A stretch of 64,000 bases of DNA from Candidatus Omnitrophota bacterium (GTDB lineage Bacteria > Omnitrophota > Gorgyraeia > Zapsychrales > Zapsychraceae), in NCBI GenBank assembly GCA_015233195.1, contig JADFYE010000010.1, forward strand, positions 9,869 to 73,868, in the 5' to 3' direction. The notes beneath the pieces are model-generated. The model searched no databases, was not told where the DNA came from, and saw only the letters and a program-made list of their open reading frames with translations. Position 1 is the first letter of the stretch. Every line of letters begins with the position of its first letter. A program made the position numbers and the translations under genes. This document shows positions 3,159 through 52,542 of this stretch, one piece after another.

Positions 3159-3195
3159 AAAAATCCTTTTTGTATTTTAATGATATTTAAATTTT

Positions 3196-3228
3196 TATAT
3201 GGGCACGAAGTATCGTGCCCCTACGCAT
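3196..3228. repeat. GGGCAC hairpin repeat, copy 1 (gggcacga-agta-tcgtgccc + ctacg)
   Basis: 8-bp perfect stem at 3201-3220. Near-identical copies at 18682-18714 and 48587-48618. Confidence 0.85.
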
Positions 3229-3249
3229 ATCAATACTCTATACTATTTA

Positions 3250-5136
3250 CTAAGCAATTTTAACGTTTTTTTTCAAGTTCTCAACGGATTCTTTTAATAA
3301 ACGACAATACAGATCAAACCCTATACTTGCGATATAACCATGCTGTTCCTGTCCTAAAAGATTACCTGCCCCACGCAATTGCATATCCTCAAACGCGATT
3401 TTAAAACCAGCACCCAGCTCGCAATATTTTTCAATTGCTTCAATCCTCGCTTCAGCTTCCTGACTCAGTGATCGATGTGGCGGAATCAGAAAATAAGCAT
3501 ACGCTTCTCTAGTAAACCGCCCGACCCTGCCGCGCAATTGATGCAAATCCGCTAAACCAAAATGATCAGCGCGGTTAATTATCAAAGTATTAGCATTAGG
3601 AATATCAATACCAGACTCAATGATTGTGGTCGAGATTAAAACATCAACCGAACCTTCCAGCACCTGAATCATAATATGCTCAAGTTCTTTAGCAGACATT
3701 TGACCATGCCCAATAGCTATTCTCGCTTGCGGAACTAAACGTTTAATAATCGCTCCAATATGACTAATATCTTCGACACGGTTATGTATAAAGAACACTT
3801 GACCATGCCGCTTCACTTCCCGCTCGATCGCCTCTTTTATCAGATCCTCGTCGAATTCTTTAACAAAAGTTTTTACCGGTAACCTTTGCTGCGGCGGCGT
3901 ACTGATTACTGACATATCCCTCGCCCCAACCAAAGACATATGCAAAGTGCGCGGTATAGGCGTCGCGCTCATTGTTAAAACATCTGCCAACAAACGAAAA
4001 TGTTTTAATTTTTCTTTTGCCTTAACCCCAAACCGCTGTTCCTCATCAATAATAATCAGCCCTAAATCTTTAAACGAAATATCTTTTGATAAAAGCCGAT
4101 GCGTTCCAATTACCAAATCCACTTTACCATCCGCGAGGTCAACCACAATTTTTTGTTGTTCAGCTTTTGTTTTAAACCGGCTTAACATTGCTACCTTAAC
4201 CGGAAAATTATCCATGCGTCTTGTAAAATTGTAATAATGCTGTTCTGCCAAAATCGTAGTCGGAACCAACACTGCCACTTGTTTATGGTCCATAACTGCT
4301 TTAAATACCGCGCGCATCGCCACTTCAGTTTTACCAAACCCTACGTCGCCGCACAATAAACGATCCATTGGATAAATGGATTCCATATCACGCTTAACAT
4401 CTTCAATCGCCTTGATTTGATCTAAAGTTTCTTCAAAAGGAAACCCCTTTTCAAATTCTTTTTGCCAATCAGTATCAACGCTAAATGCATGTCCACGTAA
4501 ACTCGCCCGTACTGCCTGAGTATGCAACAACTCTGCAGCCATACGCTGCAATCTTTTTTGAATTTGCTGTTTAACCCTTTTCCATTCTGGACTGCCTAAC
4601 TTATAAACTCGAGGAGGACGCTTAGTAAAACTTACATACTTTTGTATCAAGTGGATATCATGTTTAGGCACAAACAATTTATCCCCGCCCTGATACTCAA
4701 TAACAAAATGTTCTTTTACTTCTTTCTGAACCTCAATGGTTTGTAGCCCAATAAACTTACCAATACCATGATAATTATGGACTACATAATCACCCTGCTG
4801 TATATCAACAAAATTATTTAAAGGAATATCTTCAGAAAATACGACCTTCTTATCAGTCCGTGCATGCGGTAAGACCATTACTATCTTATGTTCCCAAATA
4901 GCTTTACCAGAACGGATATTAACACTCGCGATGCGGGAAATTTTTTCATCATCAAAATCAATGCGGATGGGACCGTCAAAATTCACAGGATATATTTCAA
5001 TGATCTCTCCCCTGTGGGCATACTCTCCCTCTTGCAAAGCGTGACGGACGTTTTGATATTTTAATGCGGATAAATTGTTCAAGACCACATCTAAAGCTAT
5101 GGTCTGACCAACAAATAACTCAAGCGACTGGAACAT
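3250..5136 (-). CDS. mfd: transcription-repair coupling factor, compact form (628 aa)
   Basis: CarD/RID-like 'GDYVVHNYHGIGKFIGL..DKLFVP'. Helicase motifs 'GDVGFGKTEVA', 'DEEQRFG', 'SATPIPRT' and 'QLRGRVGR'. TRG-like 'FEDMQLRGAGNLLGQEQHG'. Confidence 0.88.
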   Translation of the reverse strand: MFQSLELFVGQTIALDVVLNNLSALKYQNVRHALQEGEYAHRGEIIEIYPVNFDGPIRIDFDDEKISRIASVNIRSGKAIWEHKIVMVLPHARTDKKVVFSEDIPLNNFVDIQQGDYVVHNYHGIGKFIGLQTIEVQKEVKEHFVIEYQGGDKLFVPKHDIHLIQKYVSFTKRPPRVYKLGSPEWKRVKQQIQKRLQRMAAELLHTQAVRASLRGHAFSVDTDWQKEFEKGFPFEETLDQIKAIEDVKRDMESIYPMDRLLCGDVGFGKTEVAMRAVFKAVMDHKQVAVLVPTTILAEQHYYNFTRRMDNFPVKVAMLSRFKTKAEQQKIVVDLADGKVDLVIGTHRLLSKDISFKDLGLIIIDEEQRFGVKAKEKLKHFRLLADVLTMSATPIPRTLHMSLVGARDMSVISTPPQQRLPVKTFVKEFDEDLIKEAIEREVKRHGQVFFIHNRVEDISHIGAIIKRLVPQARIAIGHGQMSAKELEHIMIQVLEGSVDVLISTTIIESGIDIPNANTLIINRADHFGLADLHQLRGRVGRFTREAYAYFLIPPHRSLSQEAEARIEAIEKYCELGAGFKIAFEDMQLRGAGNLLGQEQHGYIASIGFDLYCRLLKESVENLKKNVKIA

Positions 5137-15510: not shown

Positions 15511-15938
15511 CCCTTCTACCCTTTGGGGAGAAGGTTAGGATGAGGGGATAATTTCTTCAATTTTATTTTCAATAACTTCGTAAACCCCATCCATGTTTAT
15601 CAGAACATCGTTATTTGCAAACCGCAAAATTTTTATGCCTTGAGATTCTAAATATTTACTTCGAGTTTTATCTTTACGCTCACCAATATCTTCATAATGC
15701 TGACCCCCATCTATTTCAATTGCTAATTTAATTGATGGAGCATAAAAATCGATTATGTAATTCCCGATTGAAAATTGTCTCCTAAATTTAATATTTTTAA
15801 TTTGTTGATTTCTAACATACAACCAAATTAATTTTTCAGCGTCTGTTTGCTCTTTACGAAGATCTCGACAATAATCAATATTCGGTCTTTTTGGCATTAC
15901 CCCTCACCCTAACCCTCTCCCCAGAGGCTGGAGAGGGG
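15511..15938 (-). mobile_element. DUF559 endonuclease gene bracketed by inverted ~38-nt hairpin repeats (cassette-like insertion in the his operon)
   Basis: Left arm 15511-15547 is the reverse complement of right arm 15900-15938 at most positions. The gene fills the interval almost exactly. The same repeat occurs solo elsewhere. Confidence 0.45.
15535..15897 (-). CDS. DUF559 (Vsr/restriction-endonuclease-fold) protein
   Basis: 'TDAEKLIW..VRN', 'FRRQFSIGNYIIDFY', 'LAIEIDGGQH' and 'GIKILRFANNDV' match the DUF559 pattern. Confidence 0.85.
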   Translation of the reverse strand: MPKRPNIDYCRDLRKEQTDAEKLIWLYVRNQQIKNIKFRRQFSIGNYIIDFYAPSIKLAIEIDGGQHYEDIGERKDKTRSKYLESQGIKILRFANNDVLINMDGVYEVIENKIEEIIPSS

Positions 15939-15961
15939 ACTTTCCCATCTATCTATACTCT

Positions 15962-16564
15962 CTACTCTATACTAATAAAGTTTTTAATTATTTCCAACCC
16001 TACTTCCTGGCTTTTTTCTGGGTGGAATTGGACTCCAAAAATATTATTCGAACATATCGACGAGCAATAATCTATACCATAATTAGTGGTTGTTGCAATA
16101 ATACTCTGATCCTTAGGTTTTACATAATACGAATGACAAAAATATACATTCGACTGATCTGGAATATTTTTAAAAATAGCGCAATTCTTATTAGAAATAT
16201 TTAACTGATTCCATCCCATTTGCGGCACTTTTAATTTAGTAAATTTTTCAACGCTACCTTTTAATATTCCCAGCCCCTCAACTTTACCGCCTTCATAACC
16301 AACTTCAAACAATATCTGAAATCCCAAGCATATACCAAAAAACGGTTTATTCTCGTTGACCACATTTTTTATCACAGGAATAAGCCCGAGTTCAGTTAAT
16401 TTTTCCATAGCTGGACGCATCGCGCCTACCCCGGGAAGCACGATTTTTTGAGCAGCTTTAATATCACTGGCTTTTTGCGTAACTACAGTTTCTGCTCCGG
16501 CTTTTTCAAAAGCCTTTTGCACGCTGCGTAAATTACCCATGCCATAGTCGATGATTGCAATCAT
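15962..16564 (-). CDS. hisH: imidazole glycerol phosphate synthase glutaminase subunit
   Basis: 'IAIIDYGMGNLRSV', 'LPGVGA', catalytic 'GICLGFQ' and 'FGVQFHPEKS'. Confidence 0.94.
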   Translation of the reverse strand: MIAIIDYGMGNLRSVQKAFEKAGAETVVTQKASDIKAAQKIVLPGVGAMRPAMEKLTELGLIPVIKNVVNENKPFFGICLGFQILFEVGYEGGKVEGLGILKGSVEKFTKLKVPQMGWNQLNISNKNCAIFKNIPDQSNVYFCHSYYVKPKDQSIIATTTNYGIDYCSSICSNNIFGVQFHPEKSQEVGLEIIKNFISIE

Positions 16565-17183: not shown

Positions 17184-17221
17184 CCCCTCACCCTTGCCCT
17201 CTCCCCAGAGGCTGGAGAGGG
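17184..17221. repeat. 38-nt CU/GA hairpin repeat (cccctcaccc..ccctctcc..ggagaggg)
   Basis: One of 7 copies: 15511-15547, 15900-15938, 17184-17221, 21835-21871, 21897-21933, 41684-41722 and 50543-50575. Confidence 0.9.
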
Positions 17222-17246
17222 AATCACTTTAATTTATTATTTAAAA

Positions 17247-17423
17247 ACAAATTTTTAAAAATTAAAAGGCGCAGGTATTTAAGCGGACGTTGATAATTCG
17301 AGCGGGCACGGTTTGGACGAGTTTTATCGTCCAAGAGCGAGAATTATCTTCGAGCGTAGTTTAGTCTCGCAGGGACTAGCAAGCGTTCCGCGAAATACCG
17401 AAGACTTTTATCTAAAAATTTGT
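17247..17423. repeat. ~170-nt branched-hairpin intergenic element, copy 1 (candidate structured RNA or MITE)
   Basis: Terminal inverted repeats acaaattttt/aaaaatttgt. Nested helices aaaag.c/g.ctttt, ggtattt/aaatacc, gcgga/tccgc and gataattc/gaattatc. Two tip hairpins. Confidence 0.85.
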
Positions 17424-17438
17424 TAATTATATCACTTT

Positions 17439-18662
17439 TTACTTAAATCTAACCTTGACCGATTCAGAATGTTTCTCCAATCCTTCCAAACTCGCAATCT
17501 GAATTATAGCATCTTTTACCTTTTCCAAAGCCTTTTTTGAATACGAAATAACATGACTCTTTTTCATAAAATGATCAGTGCCTAGACCAGAAAAATACTT
17601 TGCAGATCCTAAAGTCGGCAGAACATGACTGGGTCCTGCAGCATAATCCCCTAAAGCTGTTGGACTGTACGGTCCCAAAAATATCGCCCCAGCATTTATT
17701 ATACGTTTAGCAATAACATTTGGATTATTAGTCATAATTTCTAAATGTTCAGGCGCTATTTTATTAGCAATATCAGCAGCTTCCTCAATATTTTTCGCTA
17801 ATACACCATATCCAGCCGGCACACGATTACGCATTTGTTTCAATAATTGTTTTGAAGTTGAAATCAAAATTGCTAATCCACCCAAATGCTCTATCTGCCC
17901 TTCCATATCTGCAGCAATAAAATCCGGATTAGAATGACGGTTAGCAATGATCGCTAACTCCGACGGTCCAGCTAACATATCAATATCCACAAACCCAAAA
18001 ACCTGACGTTTCGCTTCAGTAACATACATATTACCCGGACCAACAATTTTATGCACCCTAGGTATAGTCTTAGTACCTAAAGCCAAAGCCGCGATCGCTT
18101 GCGCTCCTCCAACTTTATAAATTTCATTCACCTTTAATAAATTCGCAACAGCCAATACATAAGGATTAACATGACCATTTTTATTCGGTGGAGTCATGAT
18201 AACAATACGTTTAACACCTGCGACTTTAGCTGGGATTACTGTCATATATACCGTCGACACTAACGGAGCAGTGCCTGCTGGAATATAAATACCAACCGCG
18301 TCCAAAGGTAAAATTGTTTCTCTTAATATAACCCCTTCTTCAGCTTTAACAAAACATGGACTCTGTTTATGAGTCTTGTAGAACGTAGTCACGTTCTTAA
18401 TTATCATTTTTAAATTTTCAACAAAATCAGTCGTGATATTCTGGAACGCAGCGCTTATCTCGCTTTCAGGCACCCGCAAATCTTTGGCTGTCAGCTTAAC
18501 TCCGTCGAACTTACGAGTATATTTAATCACCGCGTCATCGCCCTGCAAACGCACATCTTCGATTATTTGACGGACTTTCTCGCCCAAGCTTCTTTTATGT
18601 ACTTGAACATCACGGTTATAAATATCTTGTAAACTTTTTCCGGTTTGAGTCAGAATTTTCAT
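17439..18662 (-). CDS. hisD: histidinol dehydrogenase
   Basis: 407 aa. 'GGAQAIAALA.GT', 'IVGPGN.YV..AK', 'AGPSE' and 'EH' motifs. Confidence 0.93.
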   Translation of the reverse strand: MKILTQTGKSLQDIYNRDVQVHKRSLGEKVRQIIEDVRLQGDDAVIKYTRKFDGVKLTAKDLRVPESEISAAFQNITTDFVENLKMIIKNVTTFYKTHKQSPCFVKAEEGVILRETILPLDAVGIYIPAGTAPLVSTVYMTVIPAKVAGVKRIVIMTPPNKNGHVNPYVLAVANLLKVNEIYKVGGAQAIAALALGTKTIPRVHKIVGPGNMYVTEAKRQVFGFVDIDMLAGPSELAIIANRHSNPDFIAADMEGQIEHLGGLAILISTSKQLLKQMRNRVPAGYGVLAKNIEEAADIANKIAPEHLEIMTNNPNVIAKRIINAGAIFLGPYSPTALGDYAAGPSHVLPTLGSAKYFSGLGTDHFMKKSHVISYSKKALEKVKDAIIQIASLEGLEKHSESVKVRFK

Positions 18663-18681
18663 ATATTTGCTCGTTTAATTT

Positions 18682-18714
18682 TATTTGGGCACGAAGTATC
18701 GTGCCCCTACGAAT
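18682..18714. repeat. GGGCAC hairpin repeat, copy 2
   Basis: gggcacgaagtatcgtgccc at 18687-18706. The conserved 'cctacg' tail contains the alaS stop codon. Confidence 0.85.
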
Positions 18715-21376
18715 TTTTTCTATCGTCTATCTTCTTCTTTGTTATTTGATAAGCAGCGTCAACAGCTCTATCTAAATTTTTTGTATCCTTGCTTCCAGCC
18801 TGCGCCATTTGTGGTCTGCCGCCGCCTTTACCACTAAATAAATCAGCTGCGTCTTTAATAAGCTCATTCGCATTTAAGCCTTGTTTCACCAGATCATCTG
18901 AAACTGTTATCAAAATTGTAGCACTATCTACTGATCTGGCTCCTAAAATCGATACTGACGACTTAACTTTTTGTTTTATCAAATCTGATAACTTACGTAG
19001 AATATTTATATCAACGTCTTCTAAAACCTGCACAACAATCTTACTGTCTTTAACCTGCGTTCCTTTTTGAATAATCTGATCTATGCCAGATTTTACCGCC
19101 TCAAACTTAAATTGTTCTAACTGTTTTTCAAGATCCTTAACCCGAGCGGATTGAGCAATAGTTTTATCTGCCAATTCTGTTACCGGACATTTAAATAAAT
19201 CAGCCAATTTATCTAACGTGCTTTCCTGCTCTTCAACAAACATAACTGCGTCCATACCAGTCTTAGCTTCAATCCGACGGATGCCCTGTGCGATCGCACT
19301 CTCTCCCACAATTTTAAATAAACCAATTTCACCTGTTGAATCCAAATGTGTACCACCGCAAAATTCTTTTGAATAATCACCAATAGAAATAACTCTGACT
19401 ACATCGCCGTATTTTTCCGCAAAAAATGCTAAAGCACCAGTTGATTTAGCCTCTGTAATAGGCAAGAATTCTTTGGTAACGCAGTCACAAGCTAAAATAT
19501 ATTCATTCACTCTGCGTTCAACTTTAAGTAAGTCAGCTCTTGTAATAGCTTGGTGATGTGTAAAATCCAAACGTAAACGATCATCGGAAACATACGAACC
19601 TTGCTGTTGAACATGCGTGCCTAAAATTTCCCTCAAAGCAGCTTGCAAAAGATGAGTTGCAGTATGATTACGCATAACTGCCCAGCGTCGATCAATATCA
19701 ATTTCAGCTGCCACTAAATCACCAACCTCGAACTTTCCTTTTTCTACCACACCCAAATGCAAAAACACTTCTGAAATTTTCTGAGTATCAGTGATCTTTA
19801 AAATATTTTCGCCTTTACTAATATATCCAACATCGCCAATCTGCCCGCCGGATTCAGCATAAAAAGGTGATCGATCTAAAACTATTTTTGCCTGATCCCC
19901 TTGTTTAATTTCATGAACTGGTTTATTATCCTTAAATATTCTCAAAATCGAATCTGTGGTCTTAAAATGTTTATAACCAGTAAAATCCGTCTTAGGAATA
20001 TTTAGCTCTAAAGTATTATTAGTAAATACATCGCCAGTCATTTTGCTCGATGCCCTGGATTTTTCCTGCTGCTCTGCCATTAAATGATCAAACTCGTTTT
20101 TTACCGAAGAAAAAAATGAGCTGTCATTTCCAAACACTTTAATCAAAGGCTCTTTCATGGTCTCTAAAGTCAAACCATACGTGTCACGGAAATTAAACAA
20201 TATTACTCCTACTTCTTTGTGCGCCAAATTTACAGCTAATCCCTTTTCTTTAATTTTAACCAATTCTTTTTCAAATTCCGGTATGCGTTCTTTCCTTAAC
20301 TTTATATAACCAGCCTCAATATTTTTAACTAAATTCTCAATGTCTTTATGCTTAGCTTTTATCTCAGGATATTGATCTGCCATAGCTTCGATCACAGAAG
20401 GTATTAATTTATAAACACAAGGTTCATGCTTACCGCTGCGGATTGCTATATCAGAGATAGTGATAATCAATTTTTTCATGATATAACCACGTCCTTCATT
20501 AGAAGGAATTACCCCGTCTGAAATACCAAAAGTAACTGCCCGGATATGATCAGCCATAACCCGTTTTTCCCGCAAAGACAATTTCGCGTTTACATTCTGA
20601 TCAATTGATTTTAAAATCGGTTCAAACAAAGTAGTATCAAAATTATTATGTTTACCCTGCATTAAAGCAGTTAAACGTTCCAAGCCCATACCTGTATCAA
20701 TGTTCTTATTGGGTAATGGTTCCAAAACCCCTCCGTCTTTACGCTCAAACTGTGTAAATACCAAATTCCAAATTTCACAAAAACGTCCCATTTCATCGTC
20801 TGGGTCTTTGGGCGCGTTTTTAATTCCTTTTGTTTCCCATTCATAATCAAAAAATATTTCAGAACAAGGACCACACGGACCATTCGGACCATTAAGCCTA
20901 GCATTAGACGGCCAAAAATTACTTTTATCGCCTAAACGAAAAAGTTTTATATCTTTAATACCTACTTCTTTAAGCCAAATTTGTTCAGCTTCTTTGTCTT
21001 CTTTATTTACTGATACCCATAATTTTTCCGAAGGAATGCCTAATTCTTTGGTCAAGAATTCCCACGCCCAGAAAATCGCCTCGCGTTTAAAATAATCTCC
21101 AAAAGAAAAATTACCCAACATCTCGAAAAAAGTATGATGAAAGTCGGTCTTACCTACCTCGTCCAGATCATCAGTACGCAAACATTTTTGAGCAGTAGCT
21201 GCTCGTCTGAAATCAGTAATATCCCCTAGAAATTGGCGTTTGAATTGCTGCATACCTGCAGTAGTGAACAAAACAGTTGGGTCATCTTTAGGCACTAATG
21301 AATCGCTTGCAATAACCTTATGCCCTTTAGAAGCAAAAAAATTCAAATATTTTCTGCGGATTTCGCTAGTCGTCAT
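18707..21376 (-). CDS. alaS: alanine--tRNA ligase
   Basis: 889 aa. 'FTTAGM..FK', 'QKC.R..D...VG', editing-domain 'HTATHLL' and 'CGGTH'. C-terminal DHHA1-like region. Confidence 0.96.
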   Translation of the reverse strand: MTTSEIRRKYLNFFASKGHKVIASDSLVPKDDPTVLFTTAGMQQFKRQFLGDITDFRRAATAQKCLRTDDLDEVGKTDFHHTFFEMLGNFSFGDYFKREAIFWAWEFLTKELGIPSEKLWVSVNKEDKEAEQIWLKEVGIKDIKLFRLGDKSNFWPSNARLNGPNGPCGPCSEIFFDYEWETKGIKNAPKDPDDEMGRFCEIWNLVFTQFERKDGGVLEPLPNKNIDTGMGLERLTALMQGKHNNFDTTLFEPILKSIDQNVNAKLSLREKRVMADHIRAVTFGISDGVIPSNEGRGYIMKKLIITISDIAIRSGKHEPCVYKLIPSVIEAMADQYPEIKAKHKDIENLVKNIEAGYIKLRKERIPEFEKELVKIKEKGLAVNLAHKEVGVILFNFRDTYGLTLETMKEPLIKVFGNDSSFFSSVKNEFDHLMAEQQEKSRASSKMTGDVFTNNTLELNIPKTDFTGYKHFKTTDSILRIFKDNKPVHEIKQGDQAKIVLDRSPFYAESGGQIGDVGYISKGENILKITDTQKISEVFLHLGVVEKGKFEVGDLVAAEIDIDRRWAVMRNHTATHLLQAALREILGTHVQQQGSYVSDDRLRLDFTHHQAITRADLLKVERRVNEYILACDCVTKEFLPITEAKSTGALAFFAEKYGDVVRVISIGDYSKEFCGGTHLDSTGEIGLFKIVGESAIAQGIRRIEAKTGMDAVMFVEEQESTLDKLADLFKCPVTELADKTIAQSARVKDLEKQLEQFKFEAVKSGIDQIIQKGTQVKDSKIVVQVLEDVDINILRKLSDLIKQKVKSSVSILGARSVDSATILITVSDDLVKQGLNANELIKDAADLFSGKGGGRPQMAQAGSKDTKNLDRAVDAAYQITKKKIDDRKNS

Positions 21377-21834: not shown

Positions 21835-21933
21835 CTCTTCTCCCCTCCGGGGAGAAGATTAAGATGAGGGGTTTTAATAATTTTTATTTTTTAATTCCCC
21901 TCACCCTGCCCTCTCCCCATAGGTTGGAGAGGG
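21835..21933. repeat. inverted pair of the 38-nt hairpin repeat with a 25-nt AT-only spacer (gene-less counterpart of the DUF559 cassette arms)
   Basis: 21835-21871 (ctcttctcccctccggggagaagattaagatgagggg) and 21897-21933 (cccctcaccctgccctctccccataggttggagaggg) have the same relative orientation as the arms at 15511 and 15900. Confidence 0.85.
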
Positions 21934-41683: not shown

Positions 41684-41722
41684 CCCCTCACCCTAACCCT
41701 CTCCCCATAGGCTGGAGAGGGG
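41684..41722. repeat. 38-nt CU/GA hairpin repeat
   Basis: cccctcaccctaaccctctccccataggctggagagggg. On the minus strand it ends GAGGGG, 7 nt before the TPR gene ATG. Confidence 0.9.
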
Positions 41723-41773
41723 AAAATTTAGTTTTTCTATTTTAAATTCACAGATAAAATTAAATATATATAA

Positions 41774-41948
41774 GCAAATTTTTTATATTAAAAGACGCAG
41801 GTATTTCAGCGGACGTTGATAATTCGAGCAGGCACGGTTCGTACATGCTTCACCGTACGAGAGCGAGAATTATCGTCGAGCGCAGTTAGACTAGCCGGGG
41901 CTAACCAGCGTTCCGCAAAATACCTAAGTCTTTTAACCAAAAATTTGC
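41774..41948. repeat. ~170-nt branched-hairpin intergenic element, copy 2
   Basis: TIR gcaaattttt/aaaaatttgc. P1 aaaagac/gtctttt. Tip hairpins tcgtac/gtacga and gttag/ctaac. Confidence 0.85.
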
Positions 41949-41954
41949 TAATCC

Positions 41955-44750
41955 CTATTTCAAAATTTTCCCCAAAAACTGTCCCGTATACGACTTTGCA
42001 CATTTTACTATTTCTTCAGGCGTGCCGCAAGCTATCACCTCTCCGCCTTTATCCCCGCCTTCAGGTCCAAGATCAATTATATGATCCGCGCTTTTTACCA
42101 CATCTAAATTATGCTCAATTATTAATATAGTATTGCCTCGATCAACTAACCGCTGCAAGACGCTCAATAATTTTTCAACATCCGCAAAATGCAAGCCTGT
42201 AGTCGGCTCGTCTAAAATATAAAAAGTCTGTCCAGTAGACTGTTTGCACAATTCACTTGCCAATTTAACCCGCTGCGCTTCACCGCCTGACAATGTAGTC
42301 GCGCTTTGACCTAATTTTATATATCCTAATCCTACATCATTTAAAGTCTCTAATACTTTACGAATTTTAGGCACATTTTCAAATACGTTCAAAGCTTCTA
42401 CTACCGAAGTGTTAAGAATATCATTAATATTCTTTCCCTTAAATTGTACTTCCAACGTCTGATCATTAAACCTGCGTCCGCCGCAAATTTCACATTGCAC
42501 ATAAACATCCGGTAAAAAATGCATTTCAATTTTCTTGATACCGTCGCCATTACACGCTTCACACCTACCGCCTTTGACATTAAAACTAAACCGCCCAGGT
42601 TTATAACCACGCATCTTTGAATCTGGCAGCATAGTAAATACATTACGGATATGGTCAAACATTCCGGTATAAGTCGCGGGATTAGATCGCGGCGTCCGAC
42701 CTATAGGAGATTGATCTACCACAATAAATTTATCAATCAGCTCCATGCCGGTTATTTTTTTTACTTTTCCGGGCTTTTCTTTAGAACTATAAAATTTCTG
42801 GGCTAAAGACTTATGAATAATTTCTTCGACTAATGTTGATTTTCCAGAACCGGAAACTCCGGTGATACAAGTAAAAGTTCCTAATGGTATCGCAATATCA
42901 ATATTTTTTAAGTTGTGCGCAGCAGCACCAAATATTTTTAATTGTTTTTTAAAATCAATATTACGTCTTATTTTAGGCACTGGGATAGTTAATTTACCGT
43001 TAAGATACTGACCAGTTAAAGATTTTTCAGACTTTAACAAAGCCGGCACGTCACCTTCAAATATTATTTCTCCGCCAAAAGCTCCAGCTCCCGGACCAAG
43101 ATCTATTACATGATCAGCCCTGCGTATTGTATCTTCGTCGTGCTCAACCACAATCAAGCTGTTACCCATATCCCTTAAAGCGTGCAAAGTTGAAAGCAGC
43201 CGGTCATTATCCCGTTGATGTAAGCCAATACTGGGTTCATCTAAAATATAAATAACCCCGACCAGCCCAGAACCTACTTGGGTTGCTAGACGGATACGTT
43301 CAGCTTCACCGCCTGACAATGTGCCGCTCTTCCTATCCAAAGTTAAATAATCTAAACCGACGTTTATACAAAAATCTAACCGTCTTTCAATCTCTTTTAA
43401 AATCGCTGCGCTGATTATCTTCTGATCAGCAGTTAATTTTAACTCGCGAAAAAATCGTTTAGCTTCTTTAATCGAAAAAGCGGATACTTCCGCTATATTT
43501 TTATCATTAATCTTAACTGCCAGAGATTCTTTTTTAAGACGAGCGCCATTACACTCCGGGCATGGTTTCAAAGACATATAATTACTTATCTCATCTTTCA
43601 ACCAATCACTATCCGTATCATTAAACATCCGCTCTAAATATCTAACTGCCCCTTCATACTTCTTTCCCCATATCTCGTCCATAGATCCATACAACAAAAT
43701 TTTCTTAAAAGAAGCTGAGAGTTTGTTGAATGGCGTATAAGGATCAACATCATATAGACCAGCCAACTCCCGCATCATCGCCCGATAATACATCAAATAA
43801 TTTCTGCGACCACGTTTAGAAGGGGCTATCGCATTAATCCAAGGCTTTGCCTCATCCGGTATTAAAATATCCGGATCTATTTCCATTTTAGTTCCCAGTC
43901 CATTACACGACGGACAAGCGCCATACGGAGAATTAAATGAAAAAGTTCTGGGCTCAATTTCAATAATACTTATACCGCAGTCAACACACGCAAAATGCTC
44001 GCTAAAAATCCTATCAATGGTTTTATTCTCTTCAGTAATTGAAACAATAACCAAGCCCTTGCCAAACTCTAAAGCCGTTTCAATCGAATCAGTCAAACGC
44101 TTTTTAGTATCCGGTTTAATCGTCAATCTATCGACCACAACTTCAACATTATGGATTTTATACTTATCCATTTTAATTTTATCTTCAGTGGTATAGATTT
44201 GACCATCCACCCGTAAACGCGAAAATCCCGCTTTAGTAACATCCACATTGATTTTACGATACTCCCCTTTGCGTCCTCTGATCAAAGGCGCCATAATAAT
44301 AATCTTAGTGCCTTCCCTATAATTAAATAACTGATCAACTATTTCCTGAGCATGCTGCTTCTCGATCTTTTTACCGCAATTCGGACAATAAGCAATTCCT
44401 ATGCGGGCAAACAACAGCCGCAAATAATCATTTATCTCCGTCTGAGTCGCGACTGTAGAGCGGGGATTCTTACTCGTAGTTTTTTGTTCAATCGATATTG
44501 TTGGAGATAGTCCGTCAATGGACTCAACGTTGGGTTTCTGTAATTGTTCCAGAAATTGCCGGGCATACGCAGACAAACTCTCAACATACCTACGCTGCCC
44601 TTCAGCATAGATAGTATCAAAAGCCAAAGAAGATTTACCCGAACCGCTCAACCCCGTGACTACTACAAATTTATTCCTCGGGATCTTAATGTCGAGATCT
44701 TTAAGATTATGCTCCTTGGCACCTTTAATAATTATAAAATCATTATCCAT
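41955..44750 (-). CDS. uvrA: excinuclease ABC subunit A
   Basis: 931 aa. 'GAKEHNLK', two ABC modules ('[10 protein letters not shown]', '[10 protein letters not shown]', 'LSGGEAQR') and zinc-finger CxxC pairs. Confidence 0.97.
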
Positions 44751-44854: not shown

Positions 44855-45157
44855 TTACTTTTTCTTAGCTTTTTTTGCTGCTTTTTTTGCCGGTTTTTTT
44901 GCTGCTTTTTTTGCCGGTTTTTTTGACTTTTTTTTGCCGCCTCTTACCATTGCTGCGCAGGAGATATCGCCATCTTTATCGATGAAATACAAGAAACCTG
45001 CTTGTTTTTTCAAACCGACTTTAGTGACTTTTTTAGGTTTTCCGCCTTTTTCTCCGCCGCGTGCCATCTTCGCGCAGGAAATATCTCCGTCTTTATCGAC
45101 GAAATATAAAAATCCTGCTTCCTTCTTGATACCTACTTTAGCTGCTTTCTTTGACAT
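44855..45157 (-). CDS. small lysine-rich protein: two ~38-aa repeats plus histone-H1-like KKPAKKAA tail
   Basis: 'KVG(I/L)KK(E/Q)AGFLYF(V/I)DKDGDISCA.M.RGG' occurs twice. Tail is 'KKPAKKAAKKPAKKAAKKAKKK'. AAAGGGGA SD and its own terminator. Confidence 0.7.
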   Translation of the reverse strand: MSKKAAKVGIKKEAGFLYFVDKDGDISCAKMARGGEKGGKPKKVTKVGLKKQAGFLYFIDKDGDISCAAMVRGGKKKSKKPAKKAAKKPAKKAAKKAKKK

Positions 45158-48582: not shown

Positions 48583-48586
48583 TTTT

Positions 48587-48618
48587 TATTTGGGCACAAA
48601 TTATTGTGCCCCTACGAA
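48587..48618. repeat. GGGCAC hairpin repeat, copy 3
   Basis: gggcacaa-atta-ttgtgccc at 48592-48611. It carries a compensated G-C to A-T change relative to copies 1 and 2. Confidence 0.85.
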
Positions 48619-48638
48619 TAACTATATTCTTTTACAAT

Positions 48639-50542: not shown

Positions 50543-50575
50543 CCCCTCACCTAACCTCTCCCACAAAGGGAGAGG
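50543..50575. repeat. 38-nt CU/GA hairpin repeat (shorter variant)
   Basis: cccctcacctaacctctcccacaaagggagagg. Its minus-strand GAGGGG lies 6 nt before the dapB ATG. Confidence 0.85.
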
Positions 50576-50622
50576 AAAATTAATCTATCTTTATTTTAAA
50601 ATTCGTAAACGACATTGTACGA

Positions 50623-50791
50623 ACAAATTTTTTAAATAAAAGTCGAAGGTATTTAAGCGGACATTGGTAATTCGAGCGGGCACGGTTCGTACGCCAAAAG
50701 CGTACGAGAGCGAGAATTACCGCGAGCGTAGTTTAACACGCTGGGTTAAACAAGCGTTCCGCGAAATACCGAAGACTTTTAAAAAAATTTG
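50623..50791. repeat. ~170-nt branched-hairpin intergenic element, copy 3
   Basis: P1 aaaagtc/gactttt. P4 ggtaattc/gaattacc, a double compensatory change relative to copies 1 and 2. Tip hairpins tcgtacgc/gcgtacga and gtttaac/gttaaac. Confidence 0.85.
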
Positions 50792-50846
50792 CCCATCCGA
50801 CATCTATCCTCCCAAGGACACATGAATTTTAAACTATTCATATACC

Positions 50847-51725
50847 CTATTTAATCAATCCATAATTTATTAGCGCCTGACGAAGCTTCTCTTTATTATC
50901 CGCCCCCATCTCGCACAACGGCAGACGCACTTCATCCGAACACAATCCCATCATACCCATCGCAGTTTTGACAGGTACTGGATTAGTTTCAATAAACATG
51001 GCTTTTACCAACGGTAGCATTTTGTAATGCAGTTTCTTCGCGCTGGCAAAATCCCCTTTTTCAAAACACTGGACCATCTTCGCAGTATCTGACGGAATAA
51101 TATTTGCGACCACAGAAATTATACCTGTACCGCCAATAGACATAAGCGGTAAAGTTAAAACATCATCGCCTGATAAAAGATCAAATTTATCGCCGCAAGC
51201 CGCTTTTACGTCCATCATCTGACTCAAAGAGCCTGATGCCTCTTTTACGCCTACGATATTCTTACAATCTTTAGCTAAACGCGCTAAAGTTGAAGTTTCA
51301 ATATTAACTGCAGTACGTCCAGCAATATTATAAACAATAATTGGTATCTTAACCGTATCAGCTATCTTTTTAAAATGACGGTATAACCCTTCCTGCGTCG
51401 GACGATTATAATACGGACTTACGATCAATGCCGCGTCAGCGCCTGACTCTTTTGCGTGCTGAGTCAATTCAATGGCTTCAGCTGTAGAATTAGATCCTGT
51501 TCCAGCAATAACCGGTACTTTGCCTTTAGCTTCTTCAATACATATCTCAATCACCCGGTAATGTTCTTTATATGACAACGTCGGAGATTCGCCAGTAGTA
51601 CCACACGGAACAATACCATCAGTCCCTTGTTTAATATGCCATTGCACTAATTTGCGTAATGTCTTTTCGTCCACCTGATCATTTTGAAAAGGTGTGGCAA
51701 CAGCAACAATTGAACCTCTAAACAT
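50847..51725 (-). CDS. dapA: 4-hydroxy-tetrahydrodipicolinate synthase
   Basis: 'MFRGSIVAVATPF', 'GTTGESPTL' and 'YN.P.RT'. The internal ATG at 51725 is preferred over the track start 51743. Confidence 0.94.
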   Translation of the reverse strand: MFRGSIVAVATPFQNDQVDEKTLRKLVQWHIKQGTDGIVPCGTTGESPTLSYKEHYRVIEICIEEAKGKVPVIAGTGSNSTAEAIELTQHAKESGADAALIVSPYYNRPTQEGLYRHFKKIADTVKIPIIVYNIAGRTAVNIETSTLARLAKDCKNIVGVKEASGSLSQMMDVKAACGDKFDLLSGDDVLTLPLMSIGGTGIISVVANIIPSDTAKMVQCFEKGDFASAKKLHYKMLPLVKAMFIETNPVPVKTAMGMMGLCSDEVRLPLCEMGADNKEKLRQALINYGLIK

Positions 51726-52542
51726 ACAATTCTCCTTTAGCAATAAATTTTGCGTTTCCCTTTAGCCAAACATTATTAATAACACCGTTATTAATGTCAA
51801 ACCTTACTTCTAAAATATCACCACTTAAAGTTTGTACTTTCATTAAAGCAGCTTTTTTATCTTTTATATACGGGTGTGTTTTTAAATATGTCACAATAGC
51901 TGCAGCTACACTCCCGGTACCGCAAGCTTTGGTCTCAGCTTCAACCCCTCGCTCATAAGTACGGTTACGCACTAAAACATCATTAACCTGCTCGACAAAA
52001 TTAACGTTTGTTCCTTTAGGTTTAAACTGGTCGTGAAAACGTATTGCTTTGCCAATCTGATCAACATTTATCTGGTCGAGATCTTGCACAAATATAATCA
52101 CATGCGGAACCCCGGTATTTAAAAAGTTTACTTTCATAACCTTAGTATTAACCTTTATTGGAATATCCGGTAAATATCCGCTCGGAGCGCTTAACCGCAC
52201 ATTAGCAGTTTCCCCTTTTGCTTCACATAATATCTGTCCAGCTAAAGTCTCGAGGGTAAACTGTTCTTTTTTAGGTTTACGGGTTTCTTTAATATACACT
52301 GCCATACAACGCGCTCCATTGCCGCACATTTCCGCTTCTGACCCGTCGGCATTTATAATGCGCATCTTATAATCTGCCTTCTTGGATTTCTCACATACTA
52401 AAATCCCGTCAGCACCCAACCCAGTTGAGCGGTCACACGCAATCTTAGCAAAAGTCTTTACATTCAATCCCGTAACCGGTTCAATAACAATAAAATCATT
52501 TCCCGTTCCAGCCATCTTAGTAAAATTAATTTTCTTTTTCAT
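51718..52542 (-). CDS. dapF: diaminopimelate epimerase
   Basis: 'KM.GTGNDFIVI', 'MCGNGARC' and 'ACGTG' catalytic Cys motifs. Confidence 0.94.
   Translation of the reverse strand: MKKKINFTKMAGTGNDFIVIEPVTGLNVKTFAKIACDRSTGLGADGILVCEKSKKADYKMRIINADGSEAEMCGNGARCMAVYIKETRKPKKEQFTLETLAGQILCEAKGETANVRLSAPSGYLPDIPIKVNTKVMKVNFLNTGVPHVIIFVQDLDQINVDQIGKAIRFHDQFKPKGTNVNFVEQVNDVLVRNRTYERGVEAETKACGTGSVAAAIVTYLKTHPYIKDKKAALMKVQTLSGDILEVRFDINNGVINNVWLKGNAKFIAKGELYV

Follow-up and report, generated by a model that had tools for sequence, protein, structure and literature searches.

What is the branched hairpin that separates uvrA from a tetratricopeptide-repeat (TPR) gene in the genome of a Candidatus Omnitrophota bacterium, and does it act on the transcripts of its neighbors? 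The question is raised by a 64,000-nucleotide stretch of contig JADFYE010000010.1 (assembly GCA_015233195.1, positions 9,869 to 73,868; hereafter, the window), in which a preliminary description, made from the letters alone, had noted the second of three copies of a hairpin-rich element in this spacer, overlapped by two small open reading frames (ORFs). The answer toward which we lean, at somewhat less than even confidence, is that this is a new, dispersed and insertion-polymorphic structured RNA element, probably selfish or mobile, and that a role as a regulator of uvrA is disfavored.

The repetition itself is plain. A repeat search of the window recovers all three copies in equal orientation (families D2, D4 and D7), with a mean column identity of 85% in their alignment, and the differences among them cluster in the hairpin tips, both sides changing together. 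In the tip hairpin of copy 2, for example, tcgtac (41839-41844) and gtacga (41855-41860) enclose a loop, ATGCTTCACC (41845-41854), that is unrelated among the copies while the stem is kept, just as had been noted. The perfect outer inverted repeat (GCAAATTTTT/AAAAATTTGC) and the inner helix P1 (aaaagac/gtctttt, in full (t)aaaagac and gtctttt(a)) are likewise found as described, and the coordinates agree with a position between uvrA and the TPR gene: the 931-amino-acid uvrA ORF (Pfam UvrA_inter and UvrA_DNA-bind) ends at 41955, 6 bases from the element. A covariance model scores the window copies at 116-126 bits (E ~1e-32 to 1e-36), the best score beyond these three in the window being only 10.4 bits. 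Copy 2 folds far better than chance on both strands, with z = -6.0 (+) and -6.9 (-) against 200 shuffles, which upholds the view of a structured element. Two findings go beyond that description, namely the membership of the element in a multi-phylum family and its insertion at sites where close relatives lack it.

The family was collected with a search pattern that fixes the core on both sides of the tip hairpin, CGAGCNGGCACGGT-N14-44-GAGAGCGAGA, and matches 28 metagenome loci and 14 genome loci; one of the latter (L029, Embleya) is a chance match in coding DNA and was dropped, leaving 13 true genome loci. Viral contigs contain no match to this core pattern. An earlier pattern, TAATTCGAGCNGGCACGGTT, was fitted too narrowly to this genome and had matched nothing in genome contigs or viral contigs; the GTDB representatives scanned do not include the source genome. 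The named carriers are metagenome-assembled genomes of Omnitrophota, 'Planctomycetes'-labelled bacteria, Aminicenantes, Saccharibacteria and Sungiibacteriota. Single-sequence folds give the same architecture throughout, at lengths of ~160-180 nt and from 36% to ~79% G+C. The covariance model, built from 22 sequences, finds 56 matches in the collected DNA of the window and the related loci; pattern and model together give ~50 relatives of the window copies. Several copies per genome are the rule, since eight genomes (nine loci: L008, L009, L015, L017/L041, L028, L034, L040 and L042) have a second copy a few kb or less from the first. One high-G+C metagenome organism (Ga0137796 / Ga0114945) has at least nine contigs with copies.

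The family is absent from Rfam 15, which at its gathering thresholds gives no match in the whole window and only two tRNAs in 20 related loci, and permissive E-value scans of copy 2, L018 and L036 return noise (the best, 25 bits against a gathering threshold of 112, is on the wrong strand). A blastn search of a representative against plasmids and phages finds no match, and the literature, queried for the literal core sequence as well, yielded no description of the element.

The case for a conserved fold is carried by covariation. In the seed alignment, RNAalifold reports compensatory changes in 30 of 39 pairs. When 48 distinct rows are aligned to the model, 36 of 42 pairs show double changes, standard pairs occupy 93.7% of cells (62.7% in shuffles), and the covariation score is 0.605 as opposed to 0.143 in shuffles, none of 500 of which reaches the observed value; a control in which partners were slid by one to three columns scores at most 0.092. 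This is supported covariation in diverged sequences, the mark of a conserved structured RNA.

Might the locus encode small proteins instead? A stop-free frame does run through at least 90% of the element in 28 of 35 members, and the ORF in copy 3 (53 amino acids) begins with the same MxIRAGTVRT. Such frames are nevertheless an effect of composition, because the distances between the three conserved blocks span all classes modulo 3 across the family and the core is read by these frames in phases 0, 1 and 2 with roughly equal frequency (7:6:5). Neither of the two ORFs has a Pfam match, nor do translations of the equivalent ORFs at other loci belong to any family; copy 1 has no ORF over 37 amino acids and hence no equivalent, the ORF in copy 3 shares only those residues dictated by conserved nucleotides and then diverges, substitutions in the helices are compensatory, and the 3' part of the + strand ORF is merely antisense to uvrA. 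Real small proteins are, on this evidence, next to inconceivable. The original judgment that both ORFs are spurious, and that conservation tracks helices and not codons, thus holds, the latter through compensatory changes in P5 and P6 among the three copies and family-wide. Where matches do occur at other loci, they come from genuine SurA-like and pilin-like genes whose N-termini had been over-extended. Translated from its reverse strand, the conserved core yields '...EPCPLE...', and naive ORFs extend across the element (L036 5385-5903 (-) and L042 1838-3019 (+), for example); these EPCPLE extensions of pilin-like and SurA-like genes, together with the short spurious ORFs, are a likely source of bad annotations.

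Which strand carries the fold bears directly on what the element could do to its neighbors. Across the family, the paired columns hold 52 G-U/U-G combinations versus only 6 A-C/C-A, 33 of 35 members fold more stably as the model strand than as the complementary one (mean difference -11.8 kcal/mol; p = 4.5e-7), and the conserved G-A pairs become U-C/C-U mismatches on the opposite strand. The folding strand is therefore the + strand of the window, antisense to uvrA, hisD/hisB and dapA/dapB; nearly every gene of the window lies on the - strand, whose complement is rich in C along its whole length. This call rests on the whole family, because the folding energy of copy 2 alone does not decide it. 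The strand assignment takes away the ground for reading the element as a terminator or processing site of uvrA mRNA. The implied action on uvrA transcripts, by termination, processing or read-through, accordingly finds no support: the selected strand is opposite uvrA, and there is no terminator-like site on either strand around any of the three copies.

A cis-acting mRNA element on the - strand, serving between uvrA and the TPR gene as a REP- or ERIC-like terminator, 3' stabilizer or processing/insulator site, would account for the placement of copy 2 only 6 nt past the uvrA stop codon and of 22 of 31 family cases directly past a stop codon on the gene strand. It would also fit the strong fold of the copy 2 reverse strand (-65.7 kcal/mol, z = -6.9), and the hairpin and Shine-Dalgarno module for the next gene that follows all three copies on that strand. 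We nonetheless regard it as improbable, given the opposite strand of selection (the 52:6 ratio, with the reverse weaker in 33 of 35), the loss of the conserved G-A pairs to mismatches on the - strand, the lack of a U-tract or terminator-like match, and the empty sites in relatives that have the same operons. An intrinsic (Rho-independent) terminator resembles the element in being a stable hairpin directly past a stop codon, but the element is branched, 175 nt long and without a U-tract, has the opposite strand under selection and is absent in relatives.

The wider family shows the same placement. Among 32 non-redundant copies, 17 have opposite-strand genes as both neighbors and 2 have same-strand genes as both. 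Of 31 cases with a called neighbor, 22 have the 3' end of the element pointing at the stop codon of a gene on the other strand, mostly at -20 to +60 nt, the 5' side being farther from the next gene. No protein family recurs beside it, the neighbors including uvrA, his, dap, rpl, ileS and metF/folD. A riboswitch or other 5' leader was rejected, the neighbors being mostly opposite-strand (17 versus 2) and of unrelated gene classes.

From the outside in, the fold consists of a closing rod (P0-P3) with tandem G-A or purine-rich internal loops, and then a three-way junction with two arms (Table 1). Arm 1 is made of P4, a tandem G-A and two G-C pairs, an 8-nt bulge with the consensus GGGCACGG, and the variable hairpin P5; arm 2 is the hairpin P6 with its conserved loop aCGCUGGG, framed by two (G/A)AGCG blocks. 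Pairing is kept where the rod varies: the outermost pair of P0 changes from A-C...G-T in copy 1 to A-GC...GC-T in copy 2, and one position of P1 is A-U in copy 2 and U-A in copy 3. The GCA/UAA loop of copy 2 occupies the position of the outer tandem G-A motif (GGC-GA-G.../...C-GA-GCC) of other family members. The inner GA-GC motif with its clamp is invariant in 45 of 46 rows, the exception (L040:4193-4367) replacing CGAGC/GCGAG by UUUUC/GAAAA and thereby placing four Watson-Crick pairs (UUUC/GAAA) at the motif positions. In the junction (helix 7), one pair is G-C in 44 of 44 rows and the other C-G in 39 rows and U-A in 4. The sequence of the P6 loop is conserved across phyla, as are ~45 unpaired nucleotides of the element.

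Table 1. Element copies in the window, parts of the copy 2 fold, and overlapping or adjoining features
Feature	Position	Strand	Remarks
Element copy 2	41774-41948	+	175 bases; uvrA/TPR gene spacer
Element copy 1	17248-17422	+	between hisD (17439-18662, -) and hisB; 118.6 bits; Pfam Histidinol_dh, IGPD
Element copy 3	50623-50793	+	between dapA (50847-51743, -) and dapB; 126.5 bits; Pfam DHDPS, DapB
P0 5' arm, outer closing helix GCAAATTTTT	41774..41783	+	pairs with AAAAATTTGC at 41939-41948
P1 5' arm TAAAAGAC	41789..41796	+	pairs with GTCTTTTA at 41928-41935
3x3 internal loop, 5' side GCA	41797..41799	+	opposite UAA 41925-41927
P2 5' arm GGTATTT	41800..41806	+	pairs with AAATACC 41918-41924; covaries family-wide (helices 1-2)
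P3 5' arm GCGGA, into three-way junction	41809..41813	+	pairs with TCCGC 41912-41916; double changes in 5/5 pairs (helix 3)
P4 5' arm GATAATTC	41818..41825	+	pairs with GAATTATC 41867-41874; double changes in 12/13 pairs (helix 4)
GA-GC, 5' half of tandem sheared G-A and 2-bp G-C clamp	41826..41829	+	opposite A-GC-GA 41862-41866
Conserved 8-nt bulge AGGCACGG	41830..41837	+	family consensus GGGCACGG
P5 variable tip hairpin TTCGTAC, loop ATGCTTCACC, GTACGAG	41838..41861	+	compensated stem; double changes in 5/5 modelled pairs (helix 6)
A-GC-GA, then P4 3' arm GAATTATC	41862..41874	+	
P4/P6 junction GTCGAGCGCAG, including conserved (G/A)AGCG	41875..41885	+	its GC pairs with GC of second AGCG, 41907-41910
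P6 hairpin TTAGAC, loop TAGCCGGG, GCTAAC	41886..41905	+	loop consensus aCGCUGGG; double changes in 6/8 pairs (helix 8)
3' strands of junction, P3, P2, P1, P0: CAGCGT-TCCGC-A-AAATACC-TAA-GTCTTTTA-ACC-AAAAATTTGC	41906..41948	+	
ORF, spurious, 65 aa	41806..42003	-	
ORF, spurious, 104 aa	41816..42130	+	3' part antisense to uvrA
Hairpin and Shine-Dalgarno repeat by copy 2	41684..41746	-	CCCTCTCC-N8-GGAGAGGG, then GGGTGAGGGG, then TPR gene ATG ~41676 (repeat families D3, D5)
Hairpin and Shine-Dalgarno-like module, other copies	15900-15962, 17184-17246, 21904-21933; diverged 50545-50577	-	

The bulge and the P6 loop may touch. A change of G to C at bulge position 3 coincides with a change of C to G in the P6 loop in three rows, which represent two lineages (L017/L041 and L042), and nowhere else in the alignment. 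These coincident changes suggest that G2-G3-C4 of the bulge pair with G-C-U of the loop and so dock the two arms; in copy 2 the proposed pairs are G41831-C41896, G41832-C41895 and C41833-G41894. The suggestion rests on two independent events, and support for the pair is limited because the search pattern fixed the bulge in most sequences. A kink-turn was considered for the tandem G-A pairs and rejected. In a kink-turn a three-nucleotide bulge is directly followed by tandem G-A pairs; here they are flanked by Watson-Crick pairs on both sides (C-GA-GC / GC-GA-G), within a continuous helix, and are swapped for four Watson-Crick pairs in L040:4193-4367.

An anatomy of this kind, with variable helices around invariant junction, bulge and loop nucleotides and a putative loop-bulge tertiary pair, invites comparison with catalytic RNA. 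Tandem G-A pairs are common in ribozyme cores. Twister, twister-sister, hammerhead, pistol and hatchet ribozymes, like the element, occur as dispersed copies in variable orientation, with an invariant junction core and loop-loop or loop-bulge contacts. The element would then stand for a new class of small ribozymes, self-cleaving or catalytic in another way, with many dispersed copies, which its failure to match any known Rfam family would allow. We consider this highly doubtful: the element resembles none of the ribozyme models in Rfam (hammerhead, twister, twister-sister, pistol, hatchet, HDV and glmS classes included), no cleavage site can be inferred, and the element is larger than the small self-cleaving ribozymes, with a long closing rod that would be unusual among them.

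The distribution of the element among close relatives points to insertion. HisD and UvrA of the window are 100% identical to those of a Candidatus Omnitrophica metagenome-assembled genome. The closest available relative, GCA_015233115.1 (HisD 89% and UvrA 86% identical), is fully syntenic and lacks the element at all three sites: its uvrA-TPR gap is 103 nt, its dapA and dapB overlap, and its hisD-hisB spacer holds a small gene of PF05635 type (23S-IVS/bAvd-like) instead. Three more distant syntenic relatives have an empty uvrA-TPR spacer of 24, 48 or 140 nt, and one relative (L044) an empty hisD-hisB spacer of 40 nt; across the four syntenic relatives, whose spacers are short or different, all three sites are empty, and in 125 kb of their DNA the covariance model finds no copy. 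The window copies, on the other hand, are mutual nearest relatives, at 78-81% identity as against no more than 62% to any other locus. Empty sites and mutual relatedness together imply insertion followed by spread within the lineage. The element was thus inserted into the uvrA/TPR, hisD/hisB and dapA/dapB spacers after the split from the closest sequenced relatives, and the three copies arose through spread inside this genome.

The operon spacers of this clade form a niche for small inserts more generally. A DUF559 endonuclease-like gene lies between hisH and hisA in the window (15535-15897, -), PF05635 genes flanked by GTATGT-type inverted repeats lie in his-operon spacers of relatives (L043 11225-11680 and L044 4620-5054), and an unannotated 128-amino-acid ORF lies between dapA and dapB in L047 (4950-5336).

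In its genomic behavior the element appears, by analogy, nearest to repeats of the REPIN, ERIC and Correia types and to ORF-less HEARO copies, while its pattern of conservation resembles that of riboswitches or ribozymes. REP/REPIN, ERIC and Correia-type repeats are likewise short, non-coding, multi-copy and intergenic, often inside operons; they too form long imperfect hairpins with compensatory change, are polymorphic for presence or absence among related genomes and come in genome-specific copy families. These are, however, genus- or family-specific simple hairpins, whereas the element has a branched core, ~45 unpaired nucleotides conserved over at least four phyla and over genomes of 36% to ~75% G+C, and a covarying putative tertiary pair. 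As opposed to REP/REPIN, it lacks GTAG, a TA duplication, terminal inverted repeats other than the closing helix and an adjoining RAYT gene, and membership in that class was rejected; the GTAG...CTAC palindromes occur only as neighbors of GC-rich copies. Those palindromes, REP-like in form, border the copies of L004, L009 and L010 (also L008, L011 and L012), with GGTAGTGGCCTACTTTG / CAAAGTAGGCCACTACC as an example.

HEARO, the IscB omega-RNA, and the IS200/IS605 guide scaffolds are structured RNAs of 150-300 nt, multi-copy, found across phyla and often without a protein gene, and HEARO/omega-RNA is tied to a mobile element; in each of these traits they resemble the element. We rejected this identity too: there is no Rfam HEARO or IS605-orfB match and no adjoining IscB or TnpB gene, both ends of the element are paired, and no variable guide is evident. 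A retron non-coding RNA was set aside since the window copies neighbor hisD/hisB, uvrA/TPR and dapA/dapB and no reverse transcriptase. As for MITEs, small transposable elements with inverted repeats at their ends, P0 is a 10-bp inverted repeat, which differs between genomes and behaves as one more helix of the fold; the three copies have no target-site duplication, and no transposase adjoins ~45 copies. To our knowledge, no described bacterial element combines a cross-phylum tertiary core, many copies per genome, insertion polymorphism and an antisense position past stop codons.

That antisense position recalls integron attC sites, whose bottom strands are antisense to the ORF and lie just past its stop codon. 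The folding strand of the element is similarly antisense to the ORF before it, beginning a few bases beyond the stop codon of that ORF, and both kinds of site are strand-specific with variable terminal structure; the interiors of attC sites vary, whereas the internal core of the element is conserved. An attC site proper was rejected, as there are no R''-L''/L'-R' boxes, no GTTRRRY, no cassette array and no integrase, and the flanks are syntenic housekeeping genes. More broadly, the conserved fold might be that of one DNA strand, a single-stranded site on which a recombinase or HUH/Y1 transposase acts in trans, the element being a recombination site or a DNA transposon of the non-autonomous kind. 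Its polymorphic insertion and its spread within the genome would follow readily from this, as would the strong strand and orientation bias past stop codons. Further points in its favor are the head-to-head adjacent copies, the REP-like GTAG...CTAC palindromes beside GC-rich copies, the C-rich folding strand of the window, presumed to be the leading-strand template, and the stability of G-T and sheared G-A pairs in DNA. It is rather unlikely all the same, since ~45 conserved unpaired nucleotides and a covarying bulge-loop pair are typical of folded RNAs and not of attC or REP. Nor is an R''/L''-L'/R' box, GTTRRRY, a 5' GTAG or a target duplication seen; no integrase or RAYT gene is nearby, and on either side lie housekeeping genes whose synteny is conserved, not cassettes.

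Suppose, alternatively, that the element is a trans-acting small RNA of the host, or the scaffold of a ribonucleoprotein, encoded by a small multigene family, with the purine loops of the rod as candidate protein-binding sites. Purifying selection on each copy is strong, with compensatory changes even among the window copies, most copies stand alone and converge with the neighboring gene, and orthologous sites in other lineages have kept it. A host RNA would hardly be expected to be missing throughout 125 kb of DNA from four syntenic relatives, in one of which UvrA and HisD are 86-89% identical, to be so patchily distributed with varying copy number, or to sit inside operons that are tightly coupled in relatives (as with the dapA/dapB overlap). 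We deem it quite unlikely.

Several observations do weigh against a selfish or mobile RNA. The spread cannot be recent, because the window copies differ by ~20%. The element is kept at orthologous sites elsewhere (L007/L013/L032 versus L014; L016 versus L024/L037), from which it follows that copies can persist under selection, and such retention fits a host function as well as it does a selfish element. The three copies show no target-site duplication and no defined ends, their flanks sharing no direct repeat, and none of the genes adjoining ~45 copies encodes a transposase, reverse transcriptase or recombinase. Nor is there a promoter or terminator above chance at the three window copies, and the head-to-head overlap of the L017/L041 copies leaves no room for separate upstream promoters. 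As to the strand, copy 2 alone folds slightly better on the - strand (-65.7 versus -59.7 kcal/mol), and strand evidence by itself is no proof of RNA, because G-T wobble and sheared G-A pairs are tolerated in single-stranded DNA. Conservation of the core, finally, is partly by construction, because most members were found with a pattern that fixes it.

The L017/L041 pair just mentioned consists of L041 3507-3678 (-) and 3671-3846 (+), ~68% identical, whose 5' ends overlap by 8 nt. It sits between rpsI and argC, with a classic bidirectional terminator between rpsI and the first copy, at the 3' side of that copy. In L040, direct copies (3220-3392 and 4193-4367) flank an AbrB/MazE-like and RelE/ParE-like toxin-antitoxin pair and adjoin a DNA methyltransferase-like gene, these labels having been judged by eye; a terminator-like hairpin with UUUU follows the first of them on its own strand. 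Upstream of the window copies, a weak match to TGGAGA-N16-TATTAT stops 8 nt short of copy 1, where promoter scans are at chance, and TATTTTAAA is conserved before all three; neither is counted as evidence. L014, L018 and L037 share a block, GCTCACAAATCCCTCC(G/A)CAAAA, 50-90 nt upstream of the element, preceded in L014 and L037 by AAAAGTTTTCTAATGCA; this may be another repeat or a promoter region.

How, then, might a selfish or mobile structured RNA of this kind work? The bulge and the P6 loop would pair and dock both arms into a compact fold; the element would be expressed as a small RNA in its own right, with transcription running toward the stop codon of the gene that precedes it; and the conserved fold would be needed for propagation or maintenance, whether by a trans-acting factor or by the RNA itself, making the element a selfish, non-autonomous mobile RNA module. 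The rarity of copies in sense orientation would be explained by the harm that the native fold does within an operon mRNA. We hold expression as its own small RNA and selfish, non-autonomous mobile behavior with at most moderate confidence. A stronger version would make the element the type of an RNA-defined mobile class: a compact, tertiary-folded RNA without a gene of its own, possibly catalytic (by self-cleavage or ligation) or retro-mobilized in trans, that has spread horizontally among Omnitrophota, the Candidate Phyla Radiation (CPR), Aminicenantes and Planctomycetes-like bacteria and settles antisense past stop codons in operons. We judge this version unlikely, though worth entertaining, and give a similarly small chance to the element being categorically new, that is, either such a gene-less mobile element or a new ribozyme class.

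The element would add a well-supported structured RNA family, with covariation on a par with that of curated riboswitches and ribozymes, to lineages whose RNA biology is little known (Omnitrophota, CPR and Aminicenantes). It also raises a testable question: could a small folded RNA, or its DNA strand, act as a mobile element without a gene? In annotation, the covariance model would clear spurious 'hypothetical protein' calls, the two ORFs here as well as those SurA-like and pilin-like ORFs that are over-extended in L042 and L036.

A second repeat accompanies the element in the window. The hairpin and Shine-Dalgarno module (Table 1) adjoins all three element copies; three of its five occurrences lie 26-51 nt from the element, and those three have TATTTTAAA in common in the spacer. 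The genes downstream of the modules are the DUF559 gene, hisB, recX, the TPR gene and dapB. Possibly the module moves together with the element and provides the gene downstream with a ribosome-binding site; because dapA and dapB overlap in the closest relative, an inserted unit there would need a ribosome-binding site of its own.

Two further repeats were seen in the window. A third intergenic family (D6) occurs at 3192-3239, 18678-18725 and 48583-48630, as a hairpin, GGGCACGAAGTATCGTGCCCC, with TACG after it. ORF 44855-45157 (-), of 100 amino acids and with no Pfam match, lies immediately upstream of uvrA on the gene strand and contains a 12-nt tandem repeat, TTTTTTGC(T/C)G(C/G)T, at 44859-44930.

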